A stretch of 64,000 bases of DNA, taken from NCBI RefSeq assembly GCF_028435265.1, contig NZ_JAGTJK010000012.1, positions 166,900-230,899 of the forward strand. The letters are read 5' to 3'. Every line of letters begins with the position of its first letter. Position 1 is the first letter of the stretch. The notes beneath the pieces are model-generated. The model was not told the origin of the DNA. It saw only the letters and a program-made list of their open reading frames with translations, and ran no database searches. Source of the stretch: Polyangium jinanense (GTDB lineage: Bacteria > Myxococcota_A > Polyangia > Polyangiales > Polyangiaceae). The position numbers were made by a program, and so were the translations under genes. Shown piece after piece: positions 10,235 to 58,753 of the stretch.

Positions 10235-11050
10235 ATGCAGACCTCCCACGAACGCCCCGCCATCAAGCCTCGTGATCCCGGTCTCGACTTCGACGAGACC
10301 GTCCCGCGCCACTGGTTCGGGGGCAACGCGCTCGCGACCCACATCGCGAACGGCGTCAATCTGCTGTTCCCGGCGGGCGAGCGTTTTTTCGTGCGCAGCG
10401 TCCACCATTACCTCGACAAACTCGAAGACCCCGCGCTCCGCGCCCAGGTGAAAGGCTTCTTCGCCCAGGAGGGCCGCCACGCCCGCACGCACGAGCGCTT
10501 CTTCGAGCGTCTCGAAGAGCAGGGCTACGAGATCAAGCCGTTCCTCCGTGTCTACGAGAAGATCGCGTACGGCATCCTCGAGCCTGCGTTCCCGCCCGCG
10601 TTCCGCCTCGCCGTCACCGCGGCGGCCGAACATTTCACGGCCATCATGGCCGAGAACGCGCTCCGCGAGCGCTTCCTCGAGCGGGCCCACCCGGCGCTGC
10701 GCGACCTGCTCTTCTGGCACGCGGCTGAGGAGATCGAGCACCGCGCCGTCGCGTTCGACGTGCTCGGCACGGTGGCGCCGAGTTATGCCCTGCGCGTCGC
10801 CGGGATGGCCCTCGCCGCTTCCACGCTGGCGGCCTTCTGGATCGCCGGGACGCTCGTGCTCCTCGAACAGGACCGCCGCCGCGGCAACGTCGATCTTCGG
10901 GCCGAGTTGCGCAAGCTCCGCGAGCATCCGATCGGCCAGCGCGTGTTTTTGCGGGGCATCAAGTCCTATCTCCGTCGCGATTTCCATCCGCTCGAAGCCG
11001 AGATCGACGGCCTCGCGCGGCAATGGCTCGAAGCGAAGGGCATGGCATGA
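10235..11050 (+). CDS. ferritin-like diiron / predicted metal-dependent hydrolase family protein
   Basis: two ExxH motifs (QEGRHARTHE and AEEIEHRAV) plus additional conserved Glu on predicted helices; first gene of an overlap-coupled operon. Confidence 0.55.
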   Translation: MQTSHERPAIKPRDPGLDFDETVPRHWFGGNALATHIANGVNLLFPAGERFFVRSVHHYLDKLEDPALRAQVKGFFAQEGRHARTHERFFERLEEQGYEIKPFLRVYEKIAYGILEPAFPPAFRLAVTAAAEHFTAIMAENALRERFLERAHPALRDLLFWHAAEEIEHRAVAFDVLGTVAPSYALRVAGMALAASTLAAFWIAGTLVLLEQDRRRGNVDLRAELRKLREHPIGQRVFLRGIKSYLRRDFHPLEAEIDGLARQWLEAKGMA

Positions 11051-17891: not shown

Positions 17892-18003
17892 CGTCTGCCC
17901 TCCGCGTGTCTCGAGGGCGAAAGGAGGCAAGAGACGTGCGATGGCACGCGCAGGCGCGCGCCGAGCACGGATTTCGCAGATTGGGAGGGAGGGGAGGGAG
18001 CCG

Positions 18004-19356
18004 TTACGACGAAGGCTTGCGGGGCGTGAGACGCGCCGTCCCTTCGAGCCCCTGCGCGCGTGCTGCCTCGACGACAGCCTCACACACGGCCTCGTGCACA
18101 TGCGGCAAGAGCGGCGAGGGAACGACCTCGCCCTTCTCCGCACACGACGCGATCGCGCGCGCCGCCGCGATACGCATCTCCGGCGTGATGGCGCGGCTCT
18201 CCACGGCGAGCGCGCCGCGGAACAGGCCCGGGAATGCGAGCGCATTGTTGATGCTGCGCCCGTCGCTGCAGTATGCAGCGCCCGCCGCGAGCGCATCGAC
18301 CGGCTCGATCTCGGGGTCCGGGTTCGACAGCGGGAAGATGACCTGCCCCGGCCGGATCCATTTCGGATCGATGAGCCCCGGCCTCCCGGTCGCCGCGATC
18401 ACGATATCGGCCTCGCGCATGAGCGTCGGCAGATCGACCGGGTGCGCGCCGAGGCTCTTGAGCCACGCCATCGCCTCCTCCGACCGATCCGTCACGAGCA
18501 CGTCGCGCGCCCCGTGCGCCATCATGAGCCGGGCGATCGCGCTTCCGGCCGCGCCGAGCCCGATCTGCCCGACGCGCGCCTTTTCCAGCGAGACGCCCGT
18601 CATTTTACACGCATTGAGCACCGCGGCGAGCGCGACCGTGGCCGTGCCGTGCTGGTCGTCGTGCATGACGGGTTTGTCGAGGCGCTCGATGAGCTCTTCC
18701 TCGATCTTGTAACAATCCGGGATGCGGATGTCCTCGAGGTGAATGCCGCCGAACGTGAGCGAGAGGCGCAGGACCGTGTCCACGAACTCCCGCGGATCGA
18801 GCGTGTCGACGAGGATCGGCGAGGCGCTGATCCCGACGAACTTGTCGTAAAGGACGGCCTTTCCTTCCATGACCGGCAGCGAGGCGAGCGGCCCGACATT
18901 GCCGAGGCCGAGGACACGCGTGCCGTTCGTGAAGATGCCGACCGAGTTCCCGATCCCCGTGAGGTGCCGCGCGCGCTCGGGCTCCCGTTCGATCGCACGC
19001 GCAACGCGGGCCACGCCCGGCGTGTAGATGTAACGCAAATCGCGCTGATGACGGAGCTCGATCCGGCTCGTCATGTGGAGCTTGCCGCCCTTGTGCAGGT
19101 CGAAGACGCGGTCGATCGTGTCGATCAGCTCGACGCCGTCGATGGCGCGCACGGCCTCGATGACGCGGTCGCGCTGCTCCTCGTCCTGGGTCTCGACGGT
19201 GATCTCGCGCAGGGTATCGCTCTCCACGATGCGCAAGGTGGTGATGTCACCAAGCAAACCGCCCTGCTCGGCCACGACCGTGGCAAGACGGGCAAGCTGG
19301 CCCACGCGGTGTTTGCATTTGACGCGAAGTACGGTGTCGAGGCTCGTCTTCCTCAT
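18004..19356 (-). CDS. NAD(P)-dependent malic enzyme with N-terminal ACT domain
   Basis: ACT-like N-terminus, malic-enzyme core (VLGLGNVGP, GTATVALAAVLNA), NAD-binding GLGAAGSAIA. Confidence 0.85.
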   Translation of the reverse strand: MRKTSLDTVLRVKCKHRVGQLARLATVVAEQGGLLGDITTLRIVESDTLREITVETQDEEQRDRVIEAVRAIDGVELIDTIDRVFDLHKGGKLHMTSRIELRHQRDLRYIYTPGVARVARAIEREPERARHLTGIGNSVGIFTNGTRVLGLGNVGPLASLPVMEGKAVLYDKFVGISASPILVDTLDPREFVDTVLRLSLTFGGIHLEDIRIPDCYKIEEELIERLDKPVMHDDQHGTATVALAAVLNACKMTGVSLEKARVGQIGLGAAGSAIARLMMAHGARDVLVTDRSEEAMAWLKSLGAHPVDLPTLMREADIVIAATGRPGLIDPKWIRPGQVIFPLSNPDPEIEPVDALAAGAAYCSDGRSINNALAFPGLFRGALAVESRAITPEMRIAAARAIASCAEKGEVVPSPLLPHVHEAVCEAVVEAARAQGLEGTARLTPRKPSS

Positions 19357-19476
19357 GGGGGCGCGGACCATACCACGAAGAAGGCCGAGTGGGAGCAAGT
19401 TGGGGAAGGAGGAGATTCCGTCTCGTCGGATCTTCCCTTATCATCCGCGCGTAGCGTTGCCCGAGGAGAGACGAGC

Positions 19477-21450
19477 ATGGTGATGTTCTCGCCCACGGAG
19501 GCCTTGCGGCCCAACTTGCACGTGGAGGTCGCGTCGGGGGACACGCTCGATGTGCGCAAGTTCCAGGTCACGGAGCGCGTGTCGGATCTCTTCGAGGTCC
19601 GCCTCGTGGCGCTCTCGCCGAACCCCGAGATCGACTTCGAGGCCGTGCTCGGGCGGGAGGCGACGTTCACGCTCTCCCGCGACCGGCTCCTCGCCTCCGC
19701 GTACCGCACCTGGGGCGGGATCTGCCATCACATCCAGCAGATCGAGTCGGAGGAGGCCGGGCTCTCCACGTACGAGCTCGTGATCGTGCCGAAGCTCTGG
19801 TTCCTCACGCAGCGGCGCAACCACCGCATGTTCCAGCAGCTTTCGGACCTCGACGTCGTGCTGCAGGTCCTCCGCGAGTGGGGCATCGAGCCCGTGCAGA
19901 AGGTCGACGCGGCCGCCTACAAGAAACGCAAATATCGGGTGCAGTACGGCGAGAGCGATTACGCTTTCGTCTGCCGGCTGCTCGAGGATGCGGGGATCAC
20001 ATTTTACTTCGACCAGCAGGGCGAGGACACGGTGCTCGTCCTTCATGACGCACCGCAGGACAATCCGCCGCGTGAGCCCGCCGTCCGGTTCGTGGACAAA
20101 CCGATGGTGGACAAGGATCTCGAGTTCGTGACCGAGGTGCGTGTCGGGCAACGCACGCGGCCGGGCAAGTACACGATCTTCGACCACGATTACCGGCGGC
20201 CGGCGAACTACAAGCTCATGGGCACGCACGCCGAGGGCGAGGCCTTCGAGCAGCAGATGGAGCGGTTTCATTACGTGCCGGGCGCGTTCCTCTTCCGCAC
20301 CGACGGGCGCGAGCCGACGCCGAGCGCCGACGACAAAGGCGCGGCGCGTCACGACGAGTCGGAGGCCAAGCGCATCGCGCGGATCCGCCTGGAGGCGAAG
20401 CGCGTCGAGGCCCGCAAGGCCACGTTCCGCACGAACCTCGTCGAGCTCCGGCCCGGGACCGTGATGCGTGTCGTCGATCATCCGCGGCGCGAGTTGTCGA
20501 ATCGGCTGCTCGTGGTGCATTCGACCTACGAGGGCACGTCGTTCGGCGAGTGGGTCCACAAGCTCGAGACGCGCAGCGCCGAGATCCACTACCGCCCGCC
20601 GCTCGTCACGCCGAAGCCAAAGGTGAGCGGCGTGGAGAGCGCGACGGTCGTCGGGCCCGCGGGCGAGGAGATTCATACCGACGAGTTCGGCCGCGTGCGG
20701 GTCCATTTCCACTGGGACCGCGAGAGCCAGATGAACCAGGATAGCTCATGCTGGATCCACGTGAGCCAATCGTGGGGCGGCGCGGGCTACGGCGGCGTGC
20801 AGCTTCCGCGCATCGGCCAGGAGGTGATCGTCGATTTCCTCGGCGGTGATCCGGACCGGCCCATCATCGTGGGGCGCGTGTTCACGAATCTGCAAAAGGT
20901 GCCGTATCCGCTGCCGGCGAACAAGACGCAGAGCGGGCTCCGATCGGCGTCGTCGCCGGCGACGGGCGGGTACAACGAGCTCATGTTCGAGGACGCCGCG
21001 GGCCGCGAGCTCATGCGGCTCCAGGCCGAGCGCGACTTCACGGGCCTCGTGAAGCACGATATGCGGTTCAACATCCAGAACGACCGCACGCACAACGTCG
21101 GCAACAACGACACGGAGTCCGTGGTCGGCGAGCAGTCGGTGAAGGTCGCGAAAAAACGCACGGTGCGGGTCAAGCTCGATCAGCAGCACCAGGTCGGGGA
21201 AAACATCCTCACGCAGGCGGTGAACGGCACGGCGACGCACATGTCGAACAAGGCGCTCACGCTCTTCAGCCCGGAGAAGATCGTGCTCTCCACGGCGCCG
21301 AACTCGTTCATCCTGATCACGCCGGGCAAGATCACGATCGAGGCCCCGCTCGTGCACATCAACCCGGGCGATACGTCCGTTCCCAATCCGCCGCAGCCCG
21401 ACGCGATCGGGGACGCCACGACCATCACCGGATACATCGGAGCGCCATGA
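19477..21450 (+). CDS. vgrG: type VI secretion spike protein VgrG (TssI), short form without a C-terminal effector extension
   Basis: ATG at 19477 with GAGGAGAG RBS (upstream 512 aa of the six-frame ORF is Arg-rich and antisense to the malic enzyme gene); gp27-like N-terminus; gp5 OB/spike motifs [11 protein letters not shown] and [24 protein letters not shown]. Confidence 0.9.
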   Translation: [657 protein letters not shown]

Positions 21451-22403
21451 GGGTTCGCAAAGTACGCGTCGACGGATTCCGGGGTTTGCCGGACCAGGAG
21501 TTTTCCCTGACCGATCCGCGCACGGACAGCGCCCACGAGCTCGTGGTCGTGACCGGCCCGCGCGCGAGCGGCAAGACGAGCTTCCTCGAAGCGATCGTCG
21601 CGGCGAAGGAGCAGGTTGGCCCGTATGGCCCCGCCGCGCCGCCGTCGAGTTTCCTGCGCCCCGGCGTGAGCACGGCGAAGGTGCGCGTCGAATGGGAGCT
21701 CTCGAATGGGGAGCGAGATCGGTACGGCACGGGCAAACGCGCATTCGTGAGCGAGTCGATCTTCGGCGACCTCGTGGTCGATCCGCCGGAGCCGGATCCG
21801 GCGCTCGCGGCGTTGCTCTCGGAGTACATCCCGGAGCCGGCGTTCGGGAAGGTCGAGTATTTCCACGCCTCGCGGAGGCTGCCCCTCGGGTCGACGATCG
21901 ATCTGTCGAAATCGGCCGGAGACAGCCTCGATCGTATGGTGAGGCTCGGCCGCGACGACACGAAGTACGCGGGGCTCGTGCGGTTCATCGTGGAGGCGGG
22001 GCTCGGGCTCGACGTGGACGCCGAGGGCAAACCAAAGCCAAAGGGACGCATCAAAAAGGCGTTCGAGGCGCTTTGCCCGACGAAGGAACTCGGAGGGCTC
22101 TACAAGGCGGGGGACGCGATGCTGCCGGTGTTCCTCGACGGACGGCGCAGGGCGTACAGCATCGCGCAGCTCTCGGACAGCGAGCTCGACGCGCTGCTCT
22201 TCGCGACGACATTCGTGCGGGCGGGCATCGGTCAATCGATCGTGCTCGTCGACACGCCGGAGAAGCACCTCGGCGACGTGGAAGCGCGCGAGTTCGTGAA
22301 GGCGCTCGCGACGCTCGGCGCGGACAACCAGCTCATCGTGGCGACGCAATCGGCGGCGCTCGTGTCGAGCGTGCAGGCGGATCAAGTGATCCGGCTCGGG
22401 TGA
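21447..22403 (+). CDS. ABC-class (AAA_21/AAA_15-like) ATPase coupled to vgrG
   Basis: ATGA overlap with the vgrG stop; Walker A VVTGPRASGKTSFLEAI; signature-like LSDSELDALLFA; Walker B/D-loop SIVLVDTPEKHLGD resembling the LIDEPENHLHP motif; 318 aa, no fused nuclease domain. Confidence 0.7.
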   Translation: MRVRKVRVDGFRGLPDQEFSLTDPRTDSAHELVVVTGPRASGKTSFLEAIVAAKEQVGPYGPAAPPSSFLRPGVSTAKVRVEWELSNGERDRYGTGKRAFVSESIFGDLVVDPPEPDPALAALLSEYIPEPAFGKVEYFHASRRLPLGSTIDLSKSAGDSLDRMVRLGRDDTKYAGLVRFIVEAGLGLDVDAEGKPKPKGRIKKAFEALCPTKELGGLYKAGDAMLPVFLDGRRRAYSIAQLSDSELDALLFATTFVRAGIGQSIVLVDTPEKHLGDVEAREFVKALATLGADNQLIVATQSAALVSSVQADQVIRLG

Positions 22404-22407
22404 GGTG

Positions 22408-22836
22408 ATGGCGGTCTACGAGGTCGACGAGTTTTCGTTCGAGGTGCCCGACGGGTACGTCGATCGCAGCATGAACCTGTTCACGCCGCCTGCGGGGCTC
22501 ATGCAGGCGACGCGGCAGAGCCTGCTCGTGACGCGGGAGCCGCGCACGGAGGAGACGGTGTCGCAGCAGGCCTCGCGGCTCGTGAAGGAGCTCGCGGCGA
22601 AGGTGCCGGGGATGAAGGTCCTCGGGCAGCGGGATCGTGCCCTCGGCGCGCTGCCCGGCCGGGAGGCGCGGATCCACGCGGTGCAGGGCACCGTGCCGGT
22701 CTATCAGCGATGTTTTTTCGTGGGCCATTACGGCACGTTGCTCACGGTCATCGCGACGTCGATGCGGTCGCAGAGCGCGCAATGCGATGCGCTCGTCGAG
22801 CGATTCATCTCGAGCTTGCGCCTGAAGAAGCGTTGA
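22408..22836 (+). CDS. DUF1795/DcrB-fold Eag-like T6SS effector chaperone (copy 1)
   Basis: about 143 aa; N-terminal YEVDEFSFEVPDGYVDRSMNLF pattern; sits between vgrG and a TMD-bearing prePAAR protein; the identical-length paralog follows. Confidence 0.5.
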   Translation: MAVYEVDEFSFEVPDGYVDRSMNLFTPPAGLMQATRQSLLVTREPRTEETVSQQASRLVKELAAKVPGMKVLGQRDRALGALPGREARIHAVQGTVPVYQRCFFVGHYGTLLTVIATSMRSQSAQCDALVERFISSLRLKKR

Positions 22837-22851
22837 GGCGGAGGAGGAGCT

Positions 22852-23283
22852 TTGGGCTTTTATCAGACGCAGGAAGCGGGCTTCGAGCTGCCGGCGAACT
22901 GGACCGACGCGAGCATCAACATGCTCGAGTATCCGCGCCCGGAGGGTTTGATCCGGGTGGGTTTGTCGCGGGCCGAGCGCGGGAACCGGGACCTCGCGGC
23001 GAGCCTGGAGGAGGTGATCGTGGAGCAGCGGCGGAAGCTGCCGTTCTTCGAGCTCCTCGGGCGCGTGGATCGCGTCTGCGGGGGTTTGCCCGGGATCGAC
23101 ACGAGGGTCACGTACGAGGAGTCGTCGCGCAAGGTGTATCAGCGGGCGCTCTCGTTTGTGATCGGGGGGCGGTTCTTCGTGCTGGGCGTCAAGGGAACGG
23201 CGACGCAGGAGGCCGAGGTCGACGCGATGTTCGAGCGGGCGGCGTCCACGTTCACGTTACGCGCGCGGCCCTCGGGGGCCTGA
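22852..23283 (+). CDS. DUF1795/DcrB-fold Eag-like T6SS effector chaperone (copy 2, TTG start)
   Basis: TTG at 22852 after GGAGGAGGAG RBS; 143 aa, collinear similarity to copy 1 (YQTQEAGFELPANWTDASINMLEY). Confidence 0.5.
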   Translation: MGFYQTQEAGFELPANWTDASINMLEYPRPEGLIRVGLSRAERGNRDLAASLEEVIVEQRRKLPFFELLGRVDRVCGGLPGIDTRVTYEESSRKVYQRALSFVIGGRFFVLGVKGTATQEAEVDAMFERAASTFTLRARPSGA

Positions 23284-23296: not shown

Positions 23297-24442
<1,146 letters not shown>

Positions 24443-24444
24443 CC

Positions 24445-26715
24445 CTACCGCCCGCCGCGCCCCGCGGGCTGCGATTGCACCACGCGACCCAGTGCAAGCA
24501 CCCGCAGCGTGATCGGCTCATTGTCCGCCGGATCCTGCTGCGGGTGCGGCTCGGCAATGGCGCGGACGCGGAACTTCGGGAAGAGCGGCAGCTTCTCGGC
24601 GAGCGCCTCCGGCATGTACGTCGGCAAAGGCGATCCGCTGCCCAGAGAGAGTATTCCCCCGATGTGCTCCCCGCCGAAGAGCTTGCGCCTGAGGTAATGC
24701 CGCTCCTCGATCAGAATGCGCTGCGCCGTCGTTTCGAGGTAATCCGACGCGAGCGACCGATTGGCCTGGGCAAACGCCTGCCGCACGCGTGACAGCGCGC
24801 CCTCGAGCAGAGGCACCGCCGCGCTCCGCGGCCCCCGGCAAAGCTCCTCCGCCGCGTCGAGCGCCTCCTTCAGCCGCTTGTCCACCCCCGCGAGCTGCGA
24901 GGCCACGGCGATCGTCGTTTTCAGCGTCTCCAGCGGGTCGCAGGTCATCACGAGCTCGCCATTCACGAGGACGAGCGGCTGTTCGAAGATCCCATCCTCG
25001 TCGATGGCCTCCTCCATCACGCGGGCAATGCCGACCGCGTCGAGCGGAGGCACGCGGCCGAGCGCGCGCCGAATGTCGCGCCGATCGGTCATGGCCTGCG
25101 TCGGTTCCTCCGGTTCCTCGCCCGTGAGCCACTCCGTCGGGCGCTGCGGATCCCGCACGTACGAGGCCCACGCCGATTGCTGACGCACGCGTTGGGGGGC
25201 GCGCTCGTCGAACCAGATCAGATCGACGTATTCCGAGGTCGGCGCGCGGCGCCGCGCAGGTGCGCTCGTCGATATCGCGGGCGCGGCCGGTTCGGGGCGC
25301 GGCGCGGCGACGGCCGCCGCATCGGAGGCCGCCGCGAGGCCGCCGAGCGTCGCCTGGGCATCGTGCACGGGCGGCGCGACGGGCGCGGGCGGCACGGGCG
25401 CCGCGATGGGCACGGGCGCGGGCGGCGCGACGGGCGCGGGCGGGGGCGTATACATCGGCGGCGCAGCCGGGGGCGCGGGGGCCGGCGCGCTCAGCGACGA
25501 GGCCGGCGCACTCAGGAAGGGAAGGCGCCCGCCGGACGCGGGGGGCCGGGCCGCAGGCGCCTCGGGCGCGGGGCTGGGCGTCGACTGGAACGGCAAGACA
25601 CGCCCCGCGGCGGCGGCCTGCGCGAGGCTCGGATCGGCGATCGTCTGGGCCCGCGGCGGCACGGGTTTCGCGGATTTCGCCTCCGCGTCGTCGTTCGGGG
25701 GAATCGATTTTTGCGGGCGCGGCGGCGCCTCGGGCGCGGCCGCGGACTTCGAGGGCGGCGCGTTGTCGAGCCAGATTCGCACCTCGCCCGGTTCGTCGCG
25801 CTGGCGCATGGGGATCTGCGCGCGGAACGTCAGCGTGCAGAGCAGCCGATCGGTATCGATCCACAAGGTATCGGCGCGCATCGGCTGCGCGGCCGCGCCG
25901 CGGCCCTCGATCAGGAACACCGGCTGGAGGCCCGGCAGGTTCGTGACGAGCCGCGGCACGCTCGGGTGTAAGTTTTCGAGGATGATCCGCGCGTTCGGGG
26001 GCAGGAAATCGGTCTGCTGATCCGGCGGCGCCGCATTGAAATAGCGGAAATCGAAGCCGTCGGGGACGTGTGATTCGTACCAGCGCTCGGGCAAGCTGCT
26101 CCGGGCGAGCGCGCCGAGCCGCTCGCGCCGGGAGGGCCACGCGGGCGCGAGCGGGCCGAACCCGACGGGCTCGACGTAATCGGCGGGGGCGCGGACCGTG
26201 ACGCCCGGCCACGTGAGGTTCGGCACGCGCACGCGCCCCATTCCGTCGGCCCATCCCGCGCGCACGCCGACCGGATTCGCCGTGTCCGGACCACCGCCGG
26301 ACCGCTCGTAGACGAGCGGCATGCGCGCGAAGCGTTGCCCCTCGGCGAGGGATCCGTCGGGCTGGAACCAGCGATCCAGGGTGACCTCGATCGACTTGTC
26401 GACCTCGCCGACGATGAGCCGCGCGACGACCGAGCGCGCGGGGACCTGCTGCGGCGCGTGCGCGGAGCCCACGAGGAGCACGTCCGCGCGAGGCTTGAAG
26501 GGCACGAGGTCGCCGGGCGCGCGCAGGCTTCGGTTCGTGTCGTCGTCCCAGTGCTCGTCGGCGGAGGTGATGTCTTCTTGCGCCTCGGCGAGCTGGGACG
26601 TGCCCGGCGCGAGGGAAAACGTCGCCTTGCAGACGAGCGTGAACACCCACCCCTGCGAGCGGTTCGGCCAGACCAAAGGCGCACAGGGGAACGGGATGTT
26701 CGAGACGATTTTCAT
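24445..26715 (-). CDS. extended DUF2169-like protein (T6SS cargo adaptor family), 756 aa, with Pro/Ala-rich linker and extra C-terminal helical domain
   Basis: N-terminus MKIVSNIPFPCAPLVWPNRSQGWVFTLVCKATFSLAPG is the characteristic DUF2169 start as I recall it; T6SS island context; convergent, 2 bp from the PAAR-protein stop. Confidence 0.5.
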   Translation of the reverse strand: MKIVSNIPFPCAPLVWPNRSQGWVFTLVCKATFSLAPGTSQLAEAQEDITSADEHWDDDTNRSLRAPGDLVPFKPRADVLLVGSAHAPQQVPARSVVARLIVGEVDKSIEVTLDRWFQPDGSLAEGQRFARMPLVYERSGGGPDTANPVGVRAGWADGMGRVRVPNLTWPGVTVRAPADYVEPVGFGPLAPAWPSRRERLGALARSSLPERWYESHVPDGFDFRYFNAAPPDQQTDFLPPNARIILENLHPSVPRLVTNLPGLQPVFLIEGRGAAAQPMRADTLWIDTDRLLCTLTFRAQIPMRQRDEPGEVRIWLDNAPPSKSAAAPEAPPRPQKSIPPNDDAEAKSAKPVPPRAQTIADPSLAQAAAAGRVLPFQSTPSPAPEAPAARPPASGGRLPFLSAPASSLSAPAPAPPAAPPMYTPPPAPVAPPAPVPIAAPVPPAPVAPPVHDAQATLGGLAAASDAAAVAAPRPEPAAPAISTSAPARRRAPTSEYVDLIWFDERAPQRVRQQSAWASYVRDPQRPTEWLTGEEPEEPTQAMTDRRDIRRALGRVPPLDAVGIARVMEEAIDEDGIFEQPLVLVNGELVMTCDPLETLKTTIAVASQLAGVDKRLKEALDAAEELCRGPRSAAVPLLEGALSRVRQAFAQANRSLASDYLETTAQRILIEERHYLRRKLFGGEHIGGILSLGSGSPLPTYMPEALAEKLPLFPKFRVRAIAEPHPQQDPADNEPITLRVLALGRVVQSQPAGRGGR

Positions 26716-26819
26716 TGGTCCCCCAAAAGATCTAGGCGGGGTGGGGGGCCCCTGTCAACACCCGCGCTCGGTCGGGGAAGGCGAGCGCGGGCTCTTGGTG
26801 CGGGCGCCTCTTGGTGGTC

Positions 26820-28109
26820 TCAATGGCAGCAGGTATTGCTGGCCCAGGCCACGCCGCCGCCGGACCGGTAGATCACGACGTTGCCGTCGTTCTGTACGGC
26901 GAGATTGGCGTAGTAATTCGACGAGCCGGCCGTGCCCGAGGCCCAGACGGGCTGGCCCGTGGACTTGTAGATCACGAGGTTGCCGTCCTCCTGCATGATG
27001 GCGCGGTCGCCGCCCTTGCCGTTCGTGCCGGAGGCCCAGAGCGGCGAGCCGCCCTGGTAAAGCACGAGGTTGCCGTCGCCCTGGAACTTGAGCTGGAAGC
27101 GGCCGTCACACGACCAGACCGATTGCTCCGCCCCGAGCCCCTGGCCGGAAGAAAGCCAGCCGCAGCCCGACGGCGACGCATACGCGGCGTAACGCGACCA
27201 GATGCCCGCGCGATCGTCGTCCGCGAGCGAGGTGTCGTTGCCGGTGTAATACGCATACATGGTCGCGGCCGAGTCGGTCGAATGGCCGAGGCCGAGGGCG
27301 TGACCGACCTCGTGCAGGGCGACGGTCTCGAGGTAGGCCGAGGACCAGCCCTCCGCGTCGTCGAAATGCACGTCGCCTCCGAGGCCGCCGCCCGGCGAAT
27401 AGGCGTGGGCGAGGACGCCGGACGAGCCGTCGAATGCACTGCTGCAGCCATGGCTGCCCGTGTAGAACCCGAACGAGATGTTCTCGCCCGAGCTCACCTC
27501 GGAGAAGCTCAAGGACGAGGAGGATCGCCACGAGAAGAGCGCGTTCTCGATCGCGGAGCGAACGGAGGCCTGGGCGAAGTCCGAGGTGTAATTCGCGAAC
27601 CGATAGGTCAGCGCCGTGGACGACCAGGTCCCGCCGAAGTGCGTGTAGGGGTCGATGTCGAGGGTCGGCACGACGCTCGGCGGATCGTAATAATCGGGGT
27701 GGCTGCAGCGCGGCATCTGCATGATTCGCTGCGTCGCGGCGTCGACGACGCCGGTCACGGGCAGGCCGTGCTGGGCCTGGTAGAGGCGCACGCCCTCTTC
27801 GAGGGCCTCGTCGAAGAGCTCCGGATCGGCCGGCTCGCGTGAGACGGCGGGCGTCCAGTCGGCGTAATGCTCGGCGAGCTCCTCGTTCTGGTAATACCCA
27901 TAGCGACGCAGATACTCGTACACGCCGCGCACCTCCGCGCCCCGCGCGCCGAGCCCGAGGCCCGCGGCGCTCTCGGCATCCACGGAAGCCTCGTCGCCGA
28001 GCGTCGAGACGTCGTCGCCCGCGCATCCCACGAGGGTCGTCGAGGCGGCCAGGGCGAGAGGCGCGAGAAACAGTGCGAAGCGGGAGTCGAAAAGGTTCGT
28101 CGAGGCCAT
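26820..28109 (-). CDS. secreted M10 matrixin-type zinc metalloprotease with N-terminal peptidoglycan-binding domain and C-terminal bulb-type (B-)lectin repeats
   Basis: ATG at 28109 (MASTNLFDSRFALFLAPLALAASTTLVGCAGDD lipobox; upstream 118 aa of the ORF is Arg/Pro-rich); HEVGHALGLGHS zincin motif; PG_binding_1-like YLRRYGYY; three QxDGNxVxY repeats. Confidence 0.85.
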   Translation of the reverse strand: MASTNLFDSRFALFLAPLALAASTTLVGCAGDDVSTLGDEASVDAESAAGLGLGARGAEVRGVYEYLRRYGYYQNEELAEHYADWTPAVSREPADPELFDEALEEGVRLYQAQHGLPVTGVVDAATQRIMQMPRCSHPDYYDPPSVVPTLDIDPYTHFGGTWSSTALTYRFANYTSDFAQASVRSAIENALFSWRSSSSLSFSEVSSGENISFGFYTGSHGCSSAFDGSSGVLAHAYSPGGGLGGDVHFDDAEGWSSAYLETVALHEVGHALGLGHSTDSAATMYAYYTGNDTSLADDDRAGIWSRYAAYASPSGCGWLSSGQGLGAEQSVWSCDGRFQLKFQGDGNLVLYQGGSPLWASGTNGKGGDRAIMQEDGNLVIYKSTGQPVWASGTAGSSNYYANLAVQNDGNVVIYRSGGGVAWASNTCCH

Positions 28110-28465: not shown

Positions 28466-28900
28466 ATGAGGAAGCTGATGATGGGAGCGGCGGCTGCGCT
28501 GCTTCTCGCGGCATGTGAGACGGAGCAAGGTGGAGGGAAGGCGCTCGGGACCGACCGCAGCCCACAAGGGGCCGGGCAACAGGGCACCGAGCAGCAACAA
28601 GGCGCGGGGCAACAAGGCGCCGGGCAACAACAACAAGGCGCCGGGCAACAACAACAAGGCGCCGGACAACAACAAGGCTCCGAATACCCGCGAGGCCCCG
28701 AGGACCAGGTGAGGCCCGATCAAGGCCAAGGAACCGGGCAGCAAGGGGCCGGGCAGCAGGGCGGTCAGCAGCAGCAAGGCGGCCAGCAGCAAGGTGGGCA
28801 GTGGCAAGGTGGCCAGCAGCAAGGCGGCCAGCAGCAAGGCGGCCAGCAGCAGCGGCCTGGGCAGCAGGGCGGCGGCACGCAGGGAGGTGGAACGCGCTGA
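28466..28900 (+). CDS. Gln/Gly-rich low-complexity lipoprotein
   Basis: MRKLMMGAAAALLLAACETEQGGGK lipobox, then GAGQQ/GGQQQ repeats encoded by tandem DNA repeats at about 28560-28880. Confidence 0.45.
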   Translation: MRKLMMGAAAALLLAACETEQGGGKALGTDRSPQGAGQQGTEQQQGAGQQGAGQQQQGAGQQQQGAGQQQGSEYPRGPEDQVRPDQGQGTGQQGAGQQGGQQQQGGQQQGGQWQGGQQQGGQQQGGQQQRPGQQGGGTQGGGTR

Positions 28901-29399: not shown

Positions 29400-30581
29400 T
29401 TACTGGCACTCGCCGAAGTCCATGTAGTCGGGGATGTTGTACGAGAAGCAGGACTTCCCACCGGAGCAGGGGTGTGCGTCGTCGCAATACGCGAGGCAGC
29501 GTTTGTTGTTGTCACCCGCGGAAAACTCGACGCCGCACCGGGCATTCACGCCGCAATCGGCGTCCCACAGGCAGATCTCGCCGACGGGCACGGGGCCGGC
29601 GTGGCCGCACGCGAAGCCGCCGGCGCCGGAGATGTCCACGATTCCGTCGTTCGTGAGGGAGTTGCGGTCGCGACACGTCGAGCCCGCCTCGCAACCATTG
29701 CTGAAGGGTGTACAGGTCGGGATGCAGACACCGGCCAGGGGCGAACCGGTCCAGTAGGCGAGGCACAGCTCGCCCGCGTCGCAATCACTCGCCTTGGCGC
29801 AGTACTCCCGGCAGGCGAAGTTGTTCGGCGCCTTGGCGTCGTCGGTGCAGAGCAGGCCCGGGGCGCAGTTGTCTTCGCCGAAGGCGGTCCGCGTACACGC
29901 AGCGCCCTCCGCGACGGCGCCGCCCACGGCCTCGCACACCGAGAAGTAGGTCTTCTTTTCCCCCGCGGGGTCGACCAGCGTGCATTCGCTGCCGGCGCCG
30001 CAGTTCTGTCCCACGAGGTCGCAGCAGGCGCTCGTGGCGCTGGCCGGGAGGGCCTGCTCGGGGAGCGCCATGGCGCAGGTCGTGCCCGTCGTGGTGACGG
30101 TGCAATTCAGCGCCAGATTGCCGTTCTCGAGCTTGGCGGTGCATTCGTAGGGAGACTTCGTGGAGAGGTGGGAGAGCTCGCCCGAGAAGGTCGCGACATC
30201 CCCGTCCACGGTGCCGGTCATCACGCCCATGTTGGTGGAGACGGTGAGTGTGCAGTCGTTTTGCGCGACGCATGCGCTCTTGAGCAGCCCCCCCATGGGG
30301 CACGGGGCCGGCTCCGTCACGACGTAGGTGCCGTTGAAATTGGCGCAGGCCGGGCCACCGCCGCCCGTACCACCGGAACCACCGGAGCCGCCCGCGCCAC
30401 CGGAACCACCGGAGCCGCCCGCGCCACCGGAACCACCGGAGCCGCCGACGCCGCCGACGCCGCCAGCGCCGCCGGAGCCGCCAGCGCCGCCGCTGCCGCC
30501 GTTGTTGGTCTCCGTGCAGCCAAAGGCCACGAGGGATGTGAGGAGAAGACTGGCGAGAAGAACGCGATTGCGAGATTGCAT
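29400..30581 (-). CDS. Cys-rich secreted lipoprotein with Gly/Ser linker, hypothetical
   Basis: ATG at 30581: MQSRNRVLLASLLLTSLVAFGC lipobox, (GGSGGAGG)n linker, more than 40 Cys. Confidence 0.65.
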   Translation of the reverse strand: MQSRNRVLLASLLLTSLVAFGCTETNNGGSGGAGGSGGAGGVGGVGGSGGSGGAGGSGGSGGAGGSGGSGGTGGGGPACANFNGTYVVTEPAPCPMGGLLKSACVAQNDCTLTVSTNMGVMTGTVDGDVATFSGELSHLSTKSPYECTAKLENGNLALNCTVTTTGTTCAMALPEQALPASATSACCDLVGQNCGAGSECTLVDPAGEKKTYFSVCEAVGGAVAEGAACTRTAFGEDNCAPGLLCTDDAKAPNNFACREYCAKASDCDAGELCLAYWTGSPLAGVCIPTCTPFSNGCEAGSTCRDRNSLTNDGIVDISGAGGFACGHAGPVPVGEICLWDADCGVNARCGVEFSAGDNNKRCLAYCDDAHPCSGGKSCFSYNIPDYMDFGECQ

Positions 30582-30883
30582 GTTGTCGATGAGCTCCGAG
30601 GTTTGCCCCGCCGTCGGCACCTAGGGCCGACCCTGGGGCGTCGTGCGGCGTGCCCTTGGCAAGCTCCGCACCACCGCGGAATCACAGCAACTTTTCGTCG
30701 GGAGCCATCGCGGAAACGTAAGGATCGGGCGGCTCGGCAGGGGAACGGGGGCGTCCCCGGAATCTCCAATGCTTGCGCCAACCTGCGCCGGAGGATGTGC
30801 CGGACGGACAGGCCCGTCGTGGCATGTGTCGAGCCCACCCCAGCCGCCCGCCGAAGCAGGTCATGCCGGCCAGCGTTCCCCGA

Positions 30884-31340: not shown

Positions 31341-34300
31341 TCAGAGATCGAAGAGCTCGTCGTCCTGGCCCGCGTCTTCCTCGGCGAGGAGGGCCTCCGC
31401 GTGCTTGGCGACCGATTCGAAGAATTTTTGCTCGGGGGATTTCGGGGGCAATCGAGCAGCGGCTTCCCGGGCCTGCGAGCGGAGGAGCGTTTCGCTGCGC
31501 TCTGCCCGGGCGCCCGAGCGCGGTCGCGCCTGGCCCGTGACGACCGAGAAGAGCGCGCTCCGGACCCGCTCGAAGCAGCCCTCGCCGGTCGTGTGCGCGC
31601 GCCGGAGGAGCGTCGCGACGAGCTCGAGGTGCGCGAAGAGGAAGGTGGGCGGCGCCTCTTCGAGGAGCGCGGAGATCGCTTCGAGCTCGCTCTCGCCGCC
31701 GTCCTGCACCCACTCGGAGAGGACCTCGACCGTCGGTAACGCAAACGAGCGCGAGGCGTCGTGGAAGAGGCGCGCGGCATGGAAGCGGACCCAGCCAATG
31801 CGGGCCCGCGCGAGGTGGCGGACACGGCGCAGGAGCGGGAGCCACTCCGGCGAGCGCGCGAGGCCCGTGAGGATCGCAGACAAGCCCTCGGGCGGGAGCG
31901 GCTCGTACTCCTCGGCGCCCGCGACGATGCCGGACGCGGCGCGCGCGATGCGCTCGATGAAGAGGCCCGTGACGTCCTCGGGCATGCGCTTGCCGGCGTG
32001 GTGGAGGAAGCGCATCGTGGAGTGGCCGTCGAGGCTGCGGGCCGCGCCGAGGCGCGTGAGGAAGAGGATGATCTCCTCCTCGGAGAGCGCGCCTTCGGAG
32101 AAGAGGCCGCCCGCGTCGAGGGCGCCGAAGAGGGCCTCGGCGACCTCGGGGCCCTCGGAGAGGTCCACGCCGACCGCGAGCTCGACCGCGTCGCGTGGAG
32201 AGGACTTGGCCAGCGTGCGGAGCGCGCCGAGCGCCGCGCGTCGGACGAAGCCGTCGCGGTGCCCGAGGAGGTGCCGGAGCGCTTCGCGATCGCCCGGCAG
32301 GGGCTTTTCGACCCAGCGATGGAAGACCTGCGCGAGCGAGGCGCAAAGCGTGGCGTTGCCGCCCCCGACGATGCTGCCGACGAGGGCCTCGGCGCGCTCG
32401 GGCGAGGCTTCGCGGAGCGCGTGGAGCAAGGAGGCGACGTGCGGGCCGAGTGGGCTCTCGGGCGCGCCCATGACGGCCTCGCAAATGGTCACCGCCGCCG
32501 CCGGGTGCTTGCGGGAGAGGACGTGCAGGAGGAGCCGCGGCGAGCCGGATTTGCCCGCGAGCGCGAGGGCTTCGAGCGCCGCGCCGAGCCCCTCGGCCGT
32601 CTGCGCAGGCGCGCGGCCCTCGGCGAGCATCTCGTCGACGACGGCGCGACAGGCGTCCGCCGAGCGGCGCTCCGTGCCACGATCGATCTCGCCCGAGCCC
32701 GGGATCTCGCTCGGCGGCATGTCGATCAAGCCGCGCTGCGCGGGTGAGCGTTGCGTGAGGGCCTCGTAGAGCCTGCGCTCCGTCGAGGTCGGGACGTTGC
32801 CGAGGGCCGTCTCGGCCGCGGCGCGGACGTCCGGAGAGCTCGCACGCCGGGCCGCGCGGCGAAGCGCGTCGGCGACGGCGAAATGGACGAGCGGGTCGCC
32901 GGAGTTCGACGCGGCGGCGCCGAGCATCGCGAGGATCTCGAGCCGCTCCTCGTCGCGCCACCCAGGCTCCATCCGCTCGCCGAGCGAAGAACCACCGGAG
33001 CCGTCGGAGAGGACACGCTCGAGGCCGTTGACCCCCGAGAGAGCCGCGCGTCGTTTCGGCGATTGCGCGCAGCCGGAGAGCGCGGCGAGGGCTTGCTTCC
33101 GCAGGGCGCGGCGGCGCTCGTCGGAGGGGCCGGCGAAGGCGGCGCCCTCGGAGAGGAAGGTGTCGATCACGTCGAGCGGTGAGTGCTTGTGATCGTGCGC
33201 GTCGTCCGCGACGAGCCATCGATCGACGGCGTCGAGCAAGGACTCGTGGACGCCGGCAGGGCGCGCCGACGAGCGCGAGGCGAGCTCGCGGAGGACACGC
33301 ATGGGGTGATCGGGGTGCGGGCTCTGGAGACGGAGATCGTCGCGGCCGAGCTCCCAGAGGAGGTCGGCGGCGCGGGGCAAGTGCGCGAGGTGCAGGCCCA
33401 CGCGGCGCAGGATCGCGGGGAGCTCGTAGAGGACGGACACGGCGGAGAAGAGGGCGCTGGGGCCCCGCGCGGCCTCGGTCTGCGCAGGAGAACGGAGGAC
33501 CGCCGCGGCGAGGTCGAGCATCGCGGCGGGATGATCCGAGGAGAGCTCACGCAGGCCGGCGAGGAGGCGGCATCGATCCGCCGCCGAGGCCGCGTCGATG
33601 CCCGCGCGGACGTGGCGGAAGAGGGCGGTCGTGATCTCGTCGGAAGCGCCGCTCGGGAGGGAGGGGCCGTCGAGCTCGCCGGCGTTGCGGATGAGCGGGA
33701 CGATGGCGTGGGCGCCGAAGCGCTCTTCCAGCGCGCGCACGCGATCGTCGAGCGAGCCCGCGAGGCTGCCCGCGGTCAAGGGGCCGACGAGCGCGCGGTA
33801 GAGCGCGTGATCCGAGAGCGCGCCGGGGACGACACGCGCGCCGTGTGGGCCCCGATCGACGACGCCCGCGGCTTCGAGCGCGCGGAGCGCCGACACGAGA
33901 TCACGACGGCGACACCCGAGCAGATCCCCCGCGCCCTGAAGGAAGCGCTCGTCCGAGGTGCGCACCGGCGCGAGGAGCGCGACGAGCGCGAGCACGCCGG
34001 CGAGGAGTTTTGGATCCCCCGCGGCGGAGGAGCGGAGCAGGAGCAGCTCGTGGCCCCGATCGAGCGCGCATGCCGCGAGCTCGCCCTTGCCGAGCAAGAC
34101 GGGATGAATGGCCTCTTCCCGCACGAGCCGGCCGGCCAGCGCGATCACGAAGGGATGCCCCTCGGCGTGCTTGGCGAGGGCGGCAGCGAACTCGCCGGGC
34201 GCATCGCCGAGCACATGCTGCGCGGCCGCTTCCGCCTCGCTCGGCGAGAGCGCGCCGAGCTCGGGCAGGATGCGCACCAGGTCCGACGAGAGCCCGACCT

Positions 34301-34787
34301 GCGCGAGGAGCGCCGAGAGGCGCGGCAGGCCCGCGGGGCGCGTCGTCAGCACGAAGCGCACGTCGCGGCGATCGATCGCCATGGGCAGGAGCATCGCGGG
34401 CGCGGCTTTGCGGCCCGCGTCGTCGATCACGATCAGGCACGGGCCGGGCGGCAGGCGTGTCGGGGTCGGCGCGCTGGTGATGTCGGTCGCGAAGCGCAGC
34501 ATGGTGCCGACCCGCTGCGCGGCGAGGGCGTCGGCGAGCGCGGAGAGCAGGCTCGTCTTGCCGGAGCCGGAGCGCCCGGGGAGCACGGCGACGCGCGCCG
34601 GGCCGCGTGCGCTTGCGAAGTCGACGAGGGCCGCGAGGATTTCGGCGCGCCCGCCGAAGGGCAGCGCTTCCTGGAAGGGGCGGCCTGCGGCGAGCGCGCC
34701 GCCTTCGAACTCGCTCGGGCCAAAGAGCGCCACACCGTGCTCGATGTGGGCGTCCGGAGGAGTGGGGAAGCCGAGGGTCGTCTCCAT
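31341..34787 (-). CDS. STAND-type P-loop NTPase with a large alpha-helical repeat C-terminal domain (1149 aa)
   Basis: ATG at 34787; FGGRAEILAALVDF, then Walker A LPGRSGSGKTSLLSALA and Walker B PCLIVIDDAG; more than 800 aa of Ala/Leu-rich helical repeats; upstream 76 aa of the ORF is Arg-rich. Confidence 0.75.
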   Translation of the reverse strand: METTLGFPTPPDAHIEHGVALFGPSEFEGGALAAGRPFQEALPFGGRAEILAALVDFASARGPARVAVLPGRSGSGKTSLLSALADALAAQRVGTMLRFATDITSAPTPTRLPPGPCLIVIDDAGRKAAPAMLLPMAIDRRDVRFVLTTRPAGLPRLSALLAQVGLSSDLVRILPELGALSPSEAEAAAQHVLGDAPGEFAAALAKHAEGHPFVIALAGRLVREEAIHPVLLGKGELAACALDRGHELLLLRSSAAGDPKLLAGVLALVALLAPVRTSDERFLQGAGDLLGCRRRDLVSALRALEAAGVVDRGPHGARVVPGALSDHALYRALVGPLTAGSLAGSLDDRVRALEERFGAHAIVPLIRNAGELDGPSLPSGASDEITTALFRHVRAGIDAASAADRCRLLAGLRELSSDHPAAMLDLAAAVLRSPAQTEAARGPSALFSAVSVLYELPAILRRVGLHLAHLPRAADLLWELGRDDLRLQSPHPDHPMRVLRELASRSSARPAGVHESLLDAVDRWLVADDAHDHKHSPLDVIDTFLSEGAAFAGPSDERRRALRKQALAALSGCAQSPKRRAALSGVNGLERVLSDGSGGSSLGERMEPGWRDEERLEILAMLGAAASNSGDPLVHFAVADALRRAARRASSPDVRAAAETALGNVPTSTERRLYEALTQRSPAQRGLIDMPPSEIPGSGEIDRGTERRSADACRAVVDEMLAEGRAPAQTAEGLGAALEALALAGKSGSPRLLLHVLSRKHPAAAVTICEAVMGAPESPLGPHVASLLHALREASPERAEALVGSIVGGGNATLCASLAQVFHRWVEKPLPGDREALRHLLGHRDGFVRRAALGALRTLAKSSPRDAVELAVGVDLSEGPEVAEALFGALDAGGLFSEGALSEEEIILFLTRLGAARSLDGHSTMRFLHHAGKRMPEDVTGLFIERIARAASGIVAGAEEYEPLPPEGLSAILTGLARSPEWLPLLRRVRHLARARIGWVRFHAARLFHDASRSFALPTVEVLSEWVQDGGESELEAISALLEEAPPTFLFAHLELVATLLRRAHTTGEGCFERVRSALFSVVTGQARPRSGARAERSETLLRSQAREAAARLPPKSPEQKFFESVAKHAEALLAEEDAGQDDELFDL

Positions 34788-35040
34788 GGAGTATCGAGCG
34801 CGCCGCGGGGCGAGCGCGCAAAGCCTACCACGGGGGGCGCCTCGCCCGGCGAGGGTTTGGAGGCGATTCAGCTCCCGAGACAAAACTCTCGGGGGGAGAG
34901 GGGGGGCCTCACCCCCGCGACCGTTCCCCGCTGGGCCGTGAGCCGGACAGACAACATCCGCGCTCTTTGTCTTTTGTCTTGCCCGACCCGTTCGTCCTCC
35001 TGATAGATGGGCCACAGCTCATCGCAGGAGGGGTTTCCAG

Positions 35041-58649: not shown

Positions 58650-58753
58650 GCGGCCGCGCCGGGCGGCTGAACAGGGCAGAACCGGGCAGGAACCGGGCGG
58701 GGCCGGCGGTGGACAGGACGGCCCGCCGGAAGGATGATGCGCAGGCGAATCGA

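Follow-up and report, generated by a model that had tools for sequence, protein, structure and literature searches.

The window, a stretch of 64,000 nucleotides from the Polyangium jinanense contig NZ_JAGTJK010000012.1, contains an intact open reading frame (24445..26715, minus strand; codon GC profile 0.74/0.56/0.88, GC3 0.88) encoding a 756-aa protein. Its translation is identical to the P. jinanense NCBI record WP_272421957.1, which already carries the name DUF2169 family T6SS accessory protein. A disordered linker of about 180 aa, rich in Pro and Ala, joins its N-terminal DUF2169 domain to a folded C-terminal domain (CTD) of 263 aa, giving three parts in all. In an AF2 model of the full-length protein the linker is flanked by two confident domains, and the pTM of 0.52 indicates no fixed packing between them.

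The N-terminal part (aa 1-316; 25768..26715, minus strand) had been assigned to DUF2169 in an earlier note made from the sequence alone, and this is borne out by the match to Pfam PF09937 (E=5e-70; 236.6 bits, cutoff 25), which spans aa 24-298 and covers positions 5-294 of the 294-position profile. A phmmer search aligned aa 74-306, including the sequence GFGP, with the solved DUF2169 structure 8VTH (E=4e-13). The modelled domain (pLDDT ~96) is largely beta, and helices (aa 194-204 and 223-226) fall in a loop of lower confidence (aa ~185-235) that begins with the conserved GFGP motif. It is therefore predicted to share the TvpA-type fold of 8VTH, a beta-sandwich with a protruding helix-bearing loop. 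The mechanism ascribed to DUF2169 is recent, namely the chaperoning of PIPY (DUF4150) spike tips, and the systems concerned are grouped into Tvp classes I-III.

The long Pro/Ala-rich linker described in the earlier note is also present (aa ~317-493; 25237..25767, minus strand). It consists of 27% Ala and 25% Pro (52% Pro+Ala), is modelled as disordered (pLDDT ~40), and is encoded by a region containing imperfect tandem repeats of 18-27 nt (25356-25448). Two LPF motifs lie within this tether, the first at aa 374-376 (GRVLPFQ; 25588..25596, minus strand) and the second at aa 398-400 (GGRLPFL; 25516..25524, minus strand). LPF is 29-fold enriched in the linkers of the family and is found in 75 of 96; SPW (12.6-fold) and the SNA of an ASNAA-like motif (8.9-fold) are enriched as well. 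No confident docking of the LPF motifs onto the DUF2169 domain or the CTD was seen in the full-length AF2 model.

The CTD (aa 494-756; 24448..25236, minus strand) is conserved and folds confidently in AF2 (pLDDT 93.9, pTM 0.87). It had been described as uncharacterised and helical. The first term holds, as no Pfam family was found for it, while the second does not: the model contains eight helices and seven strands, forming an alpha/beta domain with an OB-like barrel and a helical bundle. A search of solved structures with the whole CTD gave no significant match, and the OB-like sub-domain alone gives weak ones. Across three libraries the best of these weak matches cover about 80-100 residues. 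Conserved residues in the CTD are mainly Arg, aromatic, Gly and Pro.

Beyond the 3'-most gene of an orphan vgrG island stands the DUF2169-CTD gene, convergent to the island rather than part of its operon. The island begins with a VgrG spike gene of ~657 codons (19477..21450, plus strand; Pfam Phage_GPD, Phage_base_V and Gp5_trimer_C), with GGAGAG preceding the ATG at 19477. A longer vgrG ORF of 1169 aa starting at 17941 was rejected as an artefact, since it overlaps the opposite-strand malic-enzyme gene (18004-19398, minus strand). The next gene (21447..22403, plus strand) encodes a 318-aa protein resembling ABC/SMC-like ATPases, with weak matches to AAA_21, AAA_15 and AAA_23. Two Eag-type chaperones of the DcrB/DUF1795 family follow (22405..22836 and 22837..23283, plus strand; Pfam PF08786, E=1.5e-12 and 3.5e-11, respectively). 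The last gene (23297..24442, plus strand) encodes a 381-aa prePAAR-TMD-PAAR protein, and its stop codon is 2 nt from that of the DUF2169-CTD gene, confirming the convergent arrangement reported earlier. Its product matches PAAR_motif (E=1e-10) and, weakly, prePAAR_I. The prePAAR motif AVRLEDKVEH (aa 7-16) and a hydrophobic transmembrane hairpin (aa ~17-58) precede the PAAR domain (aa 72-132), after which come a variable region and a tail of Gly/Ser/Asn tandem repeats (24106-24436). With the motif, the N-terminal TMD, the PAAR domain and the adjacent DUF1795 genes, the protein fits the class I prePAAR/Eag type. It is the fast-evolving element of the locus, 47% identical to its orthologue in Polyangium sp. 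15x6, where the CTD is 97% identical.

On the other side, 104 nt upstream of the DUF2169-CTD gene and on the same strand, lies a gene for a 429-aa matrixin (26820..28109, minus strand), again identical to an NCBI protein record of P. jinanense. Two of the domains claimed for it are supported by Pfam (Peptidase_M10, E=7e-43; PG_binding_1, E=6e-11, aa 56-130). The third, B_lectin, falls below the Pfam cutoff (26.9 against 32.4 bits), with three QxDxNxVxY motifs of a C-terminal mannose-type lectin intact. The protein also has an LVGC lipobox, a PRCSHPD cysteine switch at aa 133 and a HEVGHALGLGH zinc site at aa 266. With an HExxHxxGxxH zinc site and a prodomain bearing a PRCxxPD switch, it has the hallmarks of an M10A zymogen. 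In M10A enzymes the removable prodomain sits N-terminal to the cysteine switch. In this matrixin PG_binding_1 occupies that position, and we take it, with the PRCSHPD that follows, to be a zymogen prodomain with its switch; its placement does not support the label of a PG-targeting protease. Just past the matrixin stop codon is a 10-bp GC-rich hairpin (26761..26791, minus strand), followed by a perfect TTGACA (26753-26758). The 110-nt spacer folds with an MFE of -42.2 kcal/mol (z=-1.78), and the hairpin, which has no U-tract, may act as a terminator. Together, the hairpin and the TTGACA between the two genes suggest that they are separate transcription units.

The long form of DUF2169 is widespread. 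A CTD profile matched 1188 cluster representatives (E<=1e-3), of which 729 also pass E<=1e-30, and a DUF2169 N-terminus is present in 97 of the 97 CTD representatives of at least 600 aa. The full-length profile gave 468 matches, including Polyangium, Sorangium, Chondromyces, Byssovorax and Minicystis, and the 120 listed are 700-1045 aa long. Hundreds of proteins share the three-part architecture, and all named members are from Polyangia, in which the 700-1045-aa form with this CTD is the norm. The view that typical DUF2169 proteins are much shorter is correct for the ~60% that are single-domain, but ~37% bear a pentapeptide-repeat extension (PMC11883445) and it does not apply to Polyangia. Two proteins (L002 and L004) combine the CTD and linker without DUF2169; the CTD is thus able to work in proteins that lack the chaperone domain.

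The genomic surroundings of the family point to the spike genes. Among the 12 informative loci, defined by a 3' flank of 3 kb or more, vgrG/PAAR genes adjoin the DUF2169-CTD gene in nine (the window, L005, L001, L003, L010, L014, L012, L016 and L018). In L012 an Eag-PAAR-DUF2169 operon runs on one strand, while L018 has a different island type. The other three, of which two are from Chondromyces crocatus and one is from Minicystis rosea, lack T6SS genes within 10 kb. The 318-aa ATPase-like protein has orthologues, 39-89% identical and likewise encoded between vgrG and eag, in L001, L003, L005, L010 and L016, while L012 keeps a remnant, and both Eag genes are syntenic in all six. At the six loci with Pfam data the PAAR partner is PF05488 in every case, with prePAAR_I also found in five. 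Within the islands at these six loci, no DUF4150 match was found. At these islands the DUF2169-CTD genes depart from the published DUF2169-PIPY pairing (Sachar et al. 2025).

Adjacency to the matrixin, by contrast, is kept solely in the nearest relative, Polyangium sp. 15x6, and its conservation is largely not borne out. The pair does not occur in P. spumosum, a Polyangium MAG, Chondromyces (three loci), Minicystis, Sorangium and a metagenomic locus. At the eight more distant loci whose upstream flank is available (L007, L008, L011, L012, L013, L016, L017 and L018), the upstream genes are unrelated to one another. The conserved partner of the DUF2169-CTD gene is the vgrG/Eag/prePAAR island, not the matrixin, and the pairing of protease and adaptor that had seemed worth noting is incidental; the meaningful neighbour lies on the other side.

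We consider it fairly probable that the gene product is a long form, specific to this lineage, of the DUF2169 (TvpA) T6SS accessory proteins. By analogy with what has been shown for DUF2169 proteins and their DUF4150/PIPY tips, its DUF2169 domain would bind the PAAR tip and shield it until the VgrG spike is fired. The tip here would be a canonical PAAR, with the Eag chaperones holding its transmembrane hairpin. For the CTD we infer a role as a second, non-catalytic binding module on a flexible linker. Its docking site might be the VgrG body, the baseplate, the ATPase-like protein of the island or another conserved partner; the LPF motifs are possible docking peptides. Several points weigh against this reading. 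Published work pairs DUF2169 strictly with DUF4150/PIPY, its co-occurrence with PAAR being rare (PMC11883445), and an action of DUF2169 on a canonical PAAR would therefore be unprecedented. The other points are the three loci lacking T6SS genes nearby, the convergent position of the gene, the CTD proteins that have no DUF2169 and the lack of confident LPF docking in the model.

A bolder proposal, which we hold only tentatively, is that the DUF2169-tether-CTD proteins of Polyangia form a further Tvp-type class, in which DUF2169 serves canonical PAAR tips and the OB-like CTD, on its LPF-bearing tether, connects the loaded spike with a further conserved component. The canonical tips in question would be prePAAR/TMD effectors with Eag, or small PAARs with DUF4123 adaptors. 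If this is true, the strict DUF2169-PIPY pairing that has been proposed would no longer hold.

It is unlikely that the protein is instead a specialised effector, with DUF2169 as the loading domain and the CTD as a spike-delivered toxin. The layout resembles that of a polymorphic toxin: a trafficking-type domain comes first, and a long linker leads to a globular domain at the C-terminus. In addition, no toxin domain can be recognised in the adjacent PAAR protein, and its gene is not followed by an immunity gene in the window. Polymorphic toxins, however, swap their C-terminal domains, while this family has the same CTD in all 97 full-length representatives, diverging in step with the DUF2169 domain (N-terminal/CTD identities of 74/80, 64/65, 55/44 and 51/38%). 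The variable toxin domain and adjacent immunity gene of such systems are missing: no conserved small immunity-like ORF was seen beside the DUF2169-CTD gene at the loci examined. Neither Pfam nor NCBIfam gave a toxin-family match, and the CTD keeps no conserved Cys, Ser or His nucleophile or catalytic-type residue set.

Quite unlikely, in our assessment, is a family role partly or wholly outside the T6SS, for instance with the CTD binding nucleic acid or peptide and LPF resembling the C-terminal IPF tip of SSB. The orphan DUF2169-CTD copies remote from any T6SS gene, two in C. crocatus and one in M. rosea, would fit such a role, as would the non-T6SS contexts of the two CTD-only proteins, the ssDNA-binding OB folds among the top structural matches and the several conserved Arg residues. 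Against it, vgrG/PAAR genes are adjacent at most of the informative loci, and we know of no setting for the DUF2169 domain other than the T6SS. The OB matches are not significant (Foldseek E>=0.04). The SSB tip requires a free C-terminus, whereas the LPF motifs are internal to the linker.

The OB-like barrel also raises the idea of a TvpA-TvpC fusion, in which the CTD, like the DUF6484/DUF3540 TvpC proteins, would mimic the VgrG tip and form a pre-complex with PAAR. This we regard as highly unlikely: hhalign of the CTD and VgrG profiles gave a probability of 0.03, no DUF6484, DUF3540 or Phage_base_V match was found in 30 family members, and the matches, none significant, are to OB folds of the SSB/PriB/tRNA-synthetase type rather than gp5/VgrG. 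The model also has no beta-prism. The CTD lacks the OB-fold plus beta-prism homology that marks such mimics.

Least credible of all is an adaptor-cargo pair in which the matrixin, or the upstream gene generally, is the cargo: although the two genes lie close together on one strand, the pair is retained in Polyangium sp. 15x6, and P. spumosum has a same-strand LysM-muramidase gene 49 nt upstream whose product lacks a signal peptide and could be T6SS cargo, the pairing is missing at the eight distant loci, the hairpin and TTGACA intervene, and the signal peptide, LVGC lipobox and zymogen prodomain argue for Sec/Lol export. This upholds the earlier opinion, in which the matrixin was probably not a T6SS cargo, and we judge it to be an unrelated lipoprotein zymogen, likely exported by Sec/Lol, whose gene lies outside the T6SS module. 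It resembles M10A zymogens in its three-helix PG_binding_1-type prodomain, switch and zinc site, and LlpA/putidacin-type MMBL lectins in its three lectin motifs. Unlike matrix metalloproteinases, this bacterial protein is a lipoprotein and has a lectin where they have a hemopexin domain; nothing connects it with the T6SS.

Among the known systems closest to the 756-aa protein are the DUF2169/TvpA spike-tip chaperones (VP1398 of V. parahaemolyticus, 8VTH of V. xiamenensis, Atu3641/Tap2 of A. tumefaciens and PA0097 of P. aeruginosa). It shares with them the PF09937 domain, the GFGP-initiated loop region, and genetic linkage to vgrG and a PAAR-type tip gene. Their partner is DUF4150/PIPY, whereas here it is a PF05488 PAAR with a prePAAR motif, transmembrane hairpin and Eag; their genes lie between vgrG and the effector, whereas this one is convergent to the island. 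Single-domain TvpA also lacks the 440-aa extension formed by the linker and CTD. In being multidomain, ~750-900 aa long and extended by a non-toxin module, the protein is like the TvpAB DUF2169-pentapeptide fusions of S. marcescens and B. glumae (Tvp class III, synteny type C). It does not belong to that class: a disordered tether and an alpha/beta OB-like domain replace the pentapeptide-repeat beta-helix, neither the protein nor the relatives examined match Pentapeptide, YjbI or DUF3540, and no TvpB or TvpC (DUF3540) genes lie beside the gene. Only weak likeness links part of the CTD to the OB folds of SSB, PriB and RPA and to class II tRNA-synthetase anticodon-binding domains.

The island itself resembles the class I prePAAR/Eag systems (Ahmad et al. 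2020; prePAAR_I) in its AxRxxDxxxH motif, TM hairpin, PAAR domain and two upstream DcrB/Eag genes, and differs from them in also holding the conserved 318-aa ATPase-like gene. No DUF2169 protein is described for such systems in the literature examined, yet one is encoded beside this island, and adjacency of any two adaptor classes is reported to be normally under 5% (PMC7714669). If the association is functional, DUF2169 would serve a wider range of spike tips than published, and the CTD would offer a new handle on the organisation of spike loading in myxobacteria. To our knowledge, these bacteria have the largest known adaptor repertoires. What sets the Polyangia-wide family apart from the described systems is the combination of canonical PAAR partners, often with Eag, an undescribed CTD and a motif-bearing linker.

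The reverse-strand gene at 24445-26715 is an intact ORF of 756 aa, and its GC content at the three codon positions (0.74/0.56/0.88, in a window of ~70% G+C) follows the pattern of a real gene. An exact-sequence look-up identifies the product as WP_272421957.1 of Polyangium jinanense, which NCBI lists under the name "DUF2169 family type VI secretion system accessory protein". Residues 24-298 match Pfam DUF2169 (PF09937) nearly end to end (E=5e-70, 236.6 bits against a cutoff of 25). The protein also matches 8VTH, the sole solved DUF2169 structure (E=4e-13), with the GFGP at the start of the protruding loop aligned. By domain content it is assigned to the DUF2169 accessory family. A linker of 27% Ala and 25% Pro (aa ~317-493) joins this domain to a C-terminal domain (CTD, aa 494-756) that has no match in Pfam or NCBIfam. 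AlphaFold2 modelled the CTD alone, from a 30-sequence alignment, with a pLDDT of 93.9 and a pTM of 0.87. The model is alpha/beta, with seven strands (2-9, 89-97, 183-186, 189-197, 204-209, 221-232 and 242-254) and eight helices, where an earlier note had described a helical domain. The CTD is thus predicted to be a well-folded domain, an OB-like barrel with a helical insertion, belonging to no described family. In a full-length model built from 71 sequences, the DUF2169 domain (aa 1-316) and CTD reach pLDDT ~96 and ~95, respectively, and the linker is disordered (~40); the pTM of 0.52 indicates that the modelled domains lack a fixed mutual packing. The rest of the earlier description (a DUF2169 N-terminus, linker, matrixin domains and a convergent PAAR gene) agrees with the ORF, the Pfam matches, the linker composition, the neighbouring genes and exact NCBI matches.

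Word-indexed protein searches with the CTD returned only 6-7 proteins, one run yielding six fragments, all from Polyangiaceae. An exhaustive profile search covering 1.84 billion representatives was needed for the family to become visible; it recovered 1188 proteins at E<=1e-3, of which 729 reach E<=1e-30. Among 152 CTD sequences examined, all 97 of at least 600 aa carry a DUF2169-like N-terminus; most of the shorter ones are fragments. With a full-length profile, 468 proteins were recovered at E<=1e-10. The 120 of these that were listed measure 700-1045 aa and have no Pfam domain other than PF09937; those with names come from Polyangium (jinanense, spumosum and aurulentum), Sorangium, Chondromyces, Byssovorax and Minicystis. 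Several Sorangium strains carry family members, one genome having at least two paralogues, and a metagenome locus scan found one locus. On the strength of the 97 long sequences and the lengths of the full-length matches, the extended DUF2169 form is the rule in the Polyangia, not the exception. The earlier remark that typical DUF2169 proteins are much shorter suits the published surveys, in which ~60% are single-domain and ~37% carry a pentapeptide-repeat extension (PMC11883445; PMC7714669), but not this class. Neither those surveys nor the Tvp classification paper (PMC13373197) describes the linker and CTD extension.

The assembly breaks off within the GC-rich Pro/Ala stretch of the gene in drafts of Polyangium sp. 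15x6 and P. fumosum (loci L005, L006 and L015), and a partial P. sorediatum protein also ends there; P0001 and P0156-P0158 are among the sequences affected. As a consequence, many of the family's database entries cover just the N- or the C-terminal part, and the CTD pieces bear the label hypothetical protein.

Across the family the linker is 238 aa long in the median and is enriched in short conserved motifs: LPF 29-fold (in 75 of 96 linkers, mostly in one or two copies), SPW 12.6-fold, and SNA 8.9-fold as part of an ASNAA-like motif. LPF occurs twice in the window protein, at aa 374-376 and 398-400. Docking of LPF in cis finds no support in the AlphaFold2 model, where the linker stays at pLDDT ~40 with marginal rises only at the motif prolines.

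The gene is convergent with a forward-strand vgrG island. The true start of VgrG (19477-21450) is the ATG at 19477, with GGAGAG ahead; a longer ORF of 1169 aa (17941-21450) is an artefact, as its first ~510 codons overlap an ACT-domain malic-enzyme gene on the reverse strand (18004-19398). VgrG is followed by a 318-aa ABC/SMC-like ATPase-type protein (21447-22403) with weak AAA_21, AAA_15 and AAA_23 matches only, two DcrB/DUF1795 (Eag) chaperones and a 381-aa prePAAR/PAAR protein (23297-24442). The T6SS literature considered makes no mention of an ATPase at this spot of a vgrG/Eag/prePAAR island. The prePAAR/PAAR protein combines the prePAAR motif AVRLEDKVEH, a TM hairpin, a PF05488 PAAR domain and a Gly/Ser/Asn tail of ~120 aa that derives from tandem repeats of 9 and 21 nt (24106-24436); its stop codon lies 2 nt from that of the DUF2169 gene. 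It has no recognisable toxin domain, and no immunity ORF follows its gene in the window. Only aa 3-262 align with the orthologue in Polyangium sp. 15x6, at 47% identity, against 72-97% for the flanking genes. As the CTDs of the two genomes are 97% identical, such divergence singles out the PAAR protein as the diversifying effector. A Pfam scan of 29 window ORFs found no T6SS core gene, so the island is an orphan vgrG island.

Elsewhere, the window encodes two large STAND/NACHT-type NTPases (31341-35015, reverse strand, 1224 aa; 58709-61342, forward strand, 877 aa, with an N-terminal HTH domain), a MoxR AAA+ protein (42834-43859), an ABC transporter pair (45955-48899) and a Ser/Thr kinase (53641-55152). 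Two predicted lipoproteins with low-complexity linkers, at 29400-30620 (reverse strand) and ~28470-28900 (forward strand), have no Pfam match; one is a 406-aa protein, Cys-rich behind a Gly/Ser tract, and the other a Gln/Gly-repeat protein.

The convergent arrangement recurs in Polyangium sp. 15x6 (L005), a Polyangiaceae MAG (L001, the same locus as L009), a metagenomic contig (L003), a Byssovorax MAG (L010, whose effector carries AARIDDSVGH) and P. spumosum (L016). In all five the ATPase-like protein, at 39-89% identity, lies between the vgrG and Eag genes. L012 retains a remnant of it and encodes Eag, prePAAR/PAAR and DUF2169-CTD in that order on one strand, in an apparent operon. Two vgrG genes are convergent to the CTD gene in L014. 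The Sorangium sp. So ce394 gene converges on an island of another type (L018:12723-19049), made up of VgrG (weak Ntox44 match), an ORF of 142 aa, a small PAAR, a DUF4123 adaptor and a PhoD-like phosphatase. Of the 12 loci whose 3' flank extends 3 kb or more, 9 have vgrG/PAAR genes adjoining the DUF2169-CTD gene; around two paralogues in Chondromyces crocatus and one copy in Minicystis rosea, no T6SS gene is present within 10 kb. The P. spumosum locus also encodes a signal-less LysM-muramidase (L016:9065-9952), a candidate T6SS cargo on the same strand 49 nt upstream of the DUF2169-CTD gene, and a 106-aa ORF between the prePAAR effector and that gene (L016:12278-12598), a candidate immunity protein. 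Myxococcota COMMD-like genes, one cited example being from P. fumosum, are reported within 10 kb of DUF2169-fold (63%), OB-fold (60%), VgrG (60%) and PAAR (47%) genes (PMC13392464).

Domain identity, architecture, family size and recurrent linkage to vgrG/PAAR islands are established for the protein. By analogy with characterised DUF2169 proteins (PMC11883445, PMC13373197), its DUF2169 domain would bind the tip protein on VgrG and shield it until firing. For the CTD, a conserved T6SS component or the ATPase-like protein of the island is the proposed binding partner, and the LPF motifs are candidate docking peptides. Such a binding module is more likely than a toxin carried on the spike, a role we regard as unlikely: the CTD is of the same kind family-wide, its divergence keeps pace with that of the DUF2169 domain (N-terminal/CTD identities of 74/80, 64/65, 55/44 and 51/38%), it has no conserved nucleophile set, and no immunity-like neighbour recurs across loci. 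Linker and CTD form a unit able to exist alone, as two related metagenomic loci (L002:~9240-10801 and L004:4624-6297) encode both without DUF2169, behind an acidic N-terminus (M..DVDDEPTNDAF) that also contains LPF. Their surroundings are non-T6SS, with adjoining 2OG-Fe(II) oxygenase and DUF3750 genes. That the OB-like CTD serves a role outside the T6SS is improbable. A TvpC-like scaffold is improbable, as comparison of the CTD with the VgrG/TvpC-like OB-fold gave an hhalign probability of only 0.03, and the assignment was rejected.

A 429-aa matrixin (MDC3956787.1; 26820-28109) lies upstream on the same strand, separated by 104 nt. It has Peptidase_M10 (E=7e-43) and PG_binding_1 (E=6e-11) matches, an LVGC lipobox and a lectin domain with three QxDxNxVxY motifs that falls below the Pfam B_lectin cutoff (26.9 against 32.4 bits) and partially matches the NCBIfam putidacin-type lectin (E=1e-26, 93.6 bits against a cutoff of 275). 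PG_binding_1 (aa 56-130) immediately precedes PRCSHPD at aa 133, a position held in family M10A by the three-helix prodomain and its cysteine switch. The match is therefore no evidence that the mature enzyme targets peptidoglycan, and the "PG-targeting protease" of the earlier note is not supported. Lipobox and prodomain position point to a Sec/Lol-exported zymogen with a mannose-type lectin. No homologue was found by tblastn in 14 related loci, and the gene tables of four further loci include one in L015 only, the closest relative; the matrixin was rejected as a conserved partner. The adjacency is kept in Polyangium sp. 15x6, where it weighs little, being retained gene order at 97% CTD identity. 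It is absent from P. spumosum, where the signal-less LysM-muramidase lies upstream, and from a Polyangium MAG (L007, 74-80% identity), whose upstream gene is divergent and P/A/K-rich; unrelated genes occupy the position in C. apiculatus, C. crocatus, M. rosea, Sorangium and L012. With adjacency so confined and the matrixin predicted to leave by Sec/Lol, it is highly improbable that the DUF2169-CTD protein is its adaptor, and the juxtaposition is incidental. The spacer holds a 10-bp GC hairpin (26761-26791) and directly then a perfect TTGACA (26753-26758); a simple terminator and promoter scan flagged neither, so separate transcription of the two genes is only suggested.

The window protein carries an undescribed, widely conserved module of tether and CTD, and it fails to follow one published regularity, the PIPY partner. 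DUF2169 is reported to co-occur strictly with DUF4150/PIPY and rarely near PAAR (PMC11883445), whereas the PAAR partner of this family is PF05488 in all six loci with Pfam data and DUF4150 in none. Likewise, adjacency of two adaptor classes is normally under 5% (PMC7714669), whereas islands of the window type place DUF2169 near Eag.
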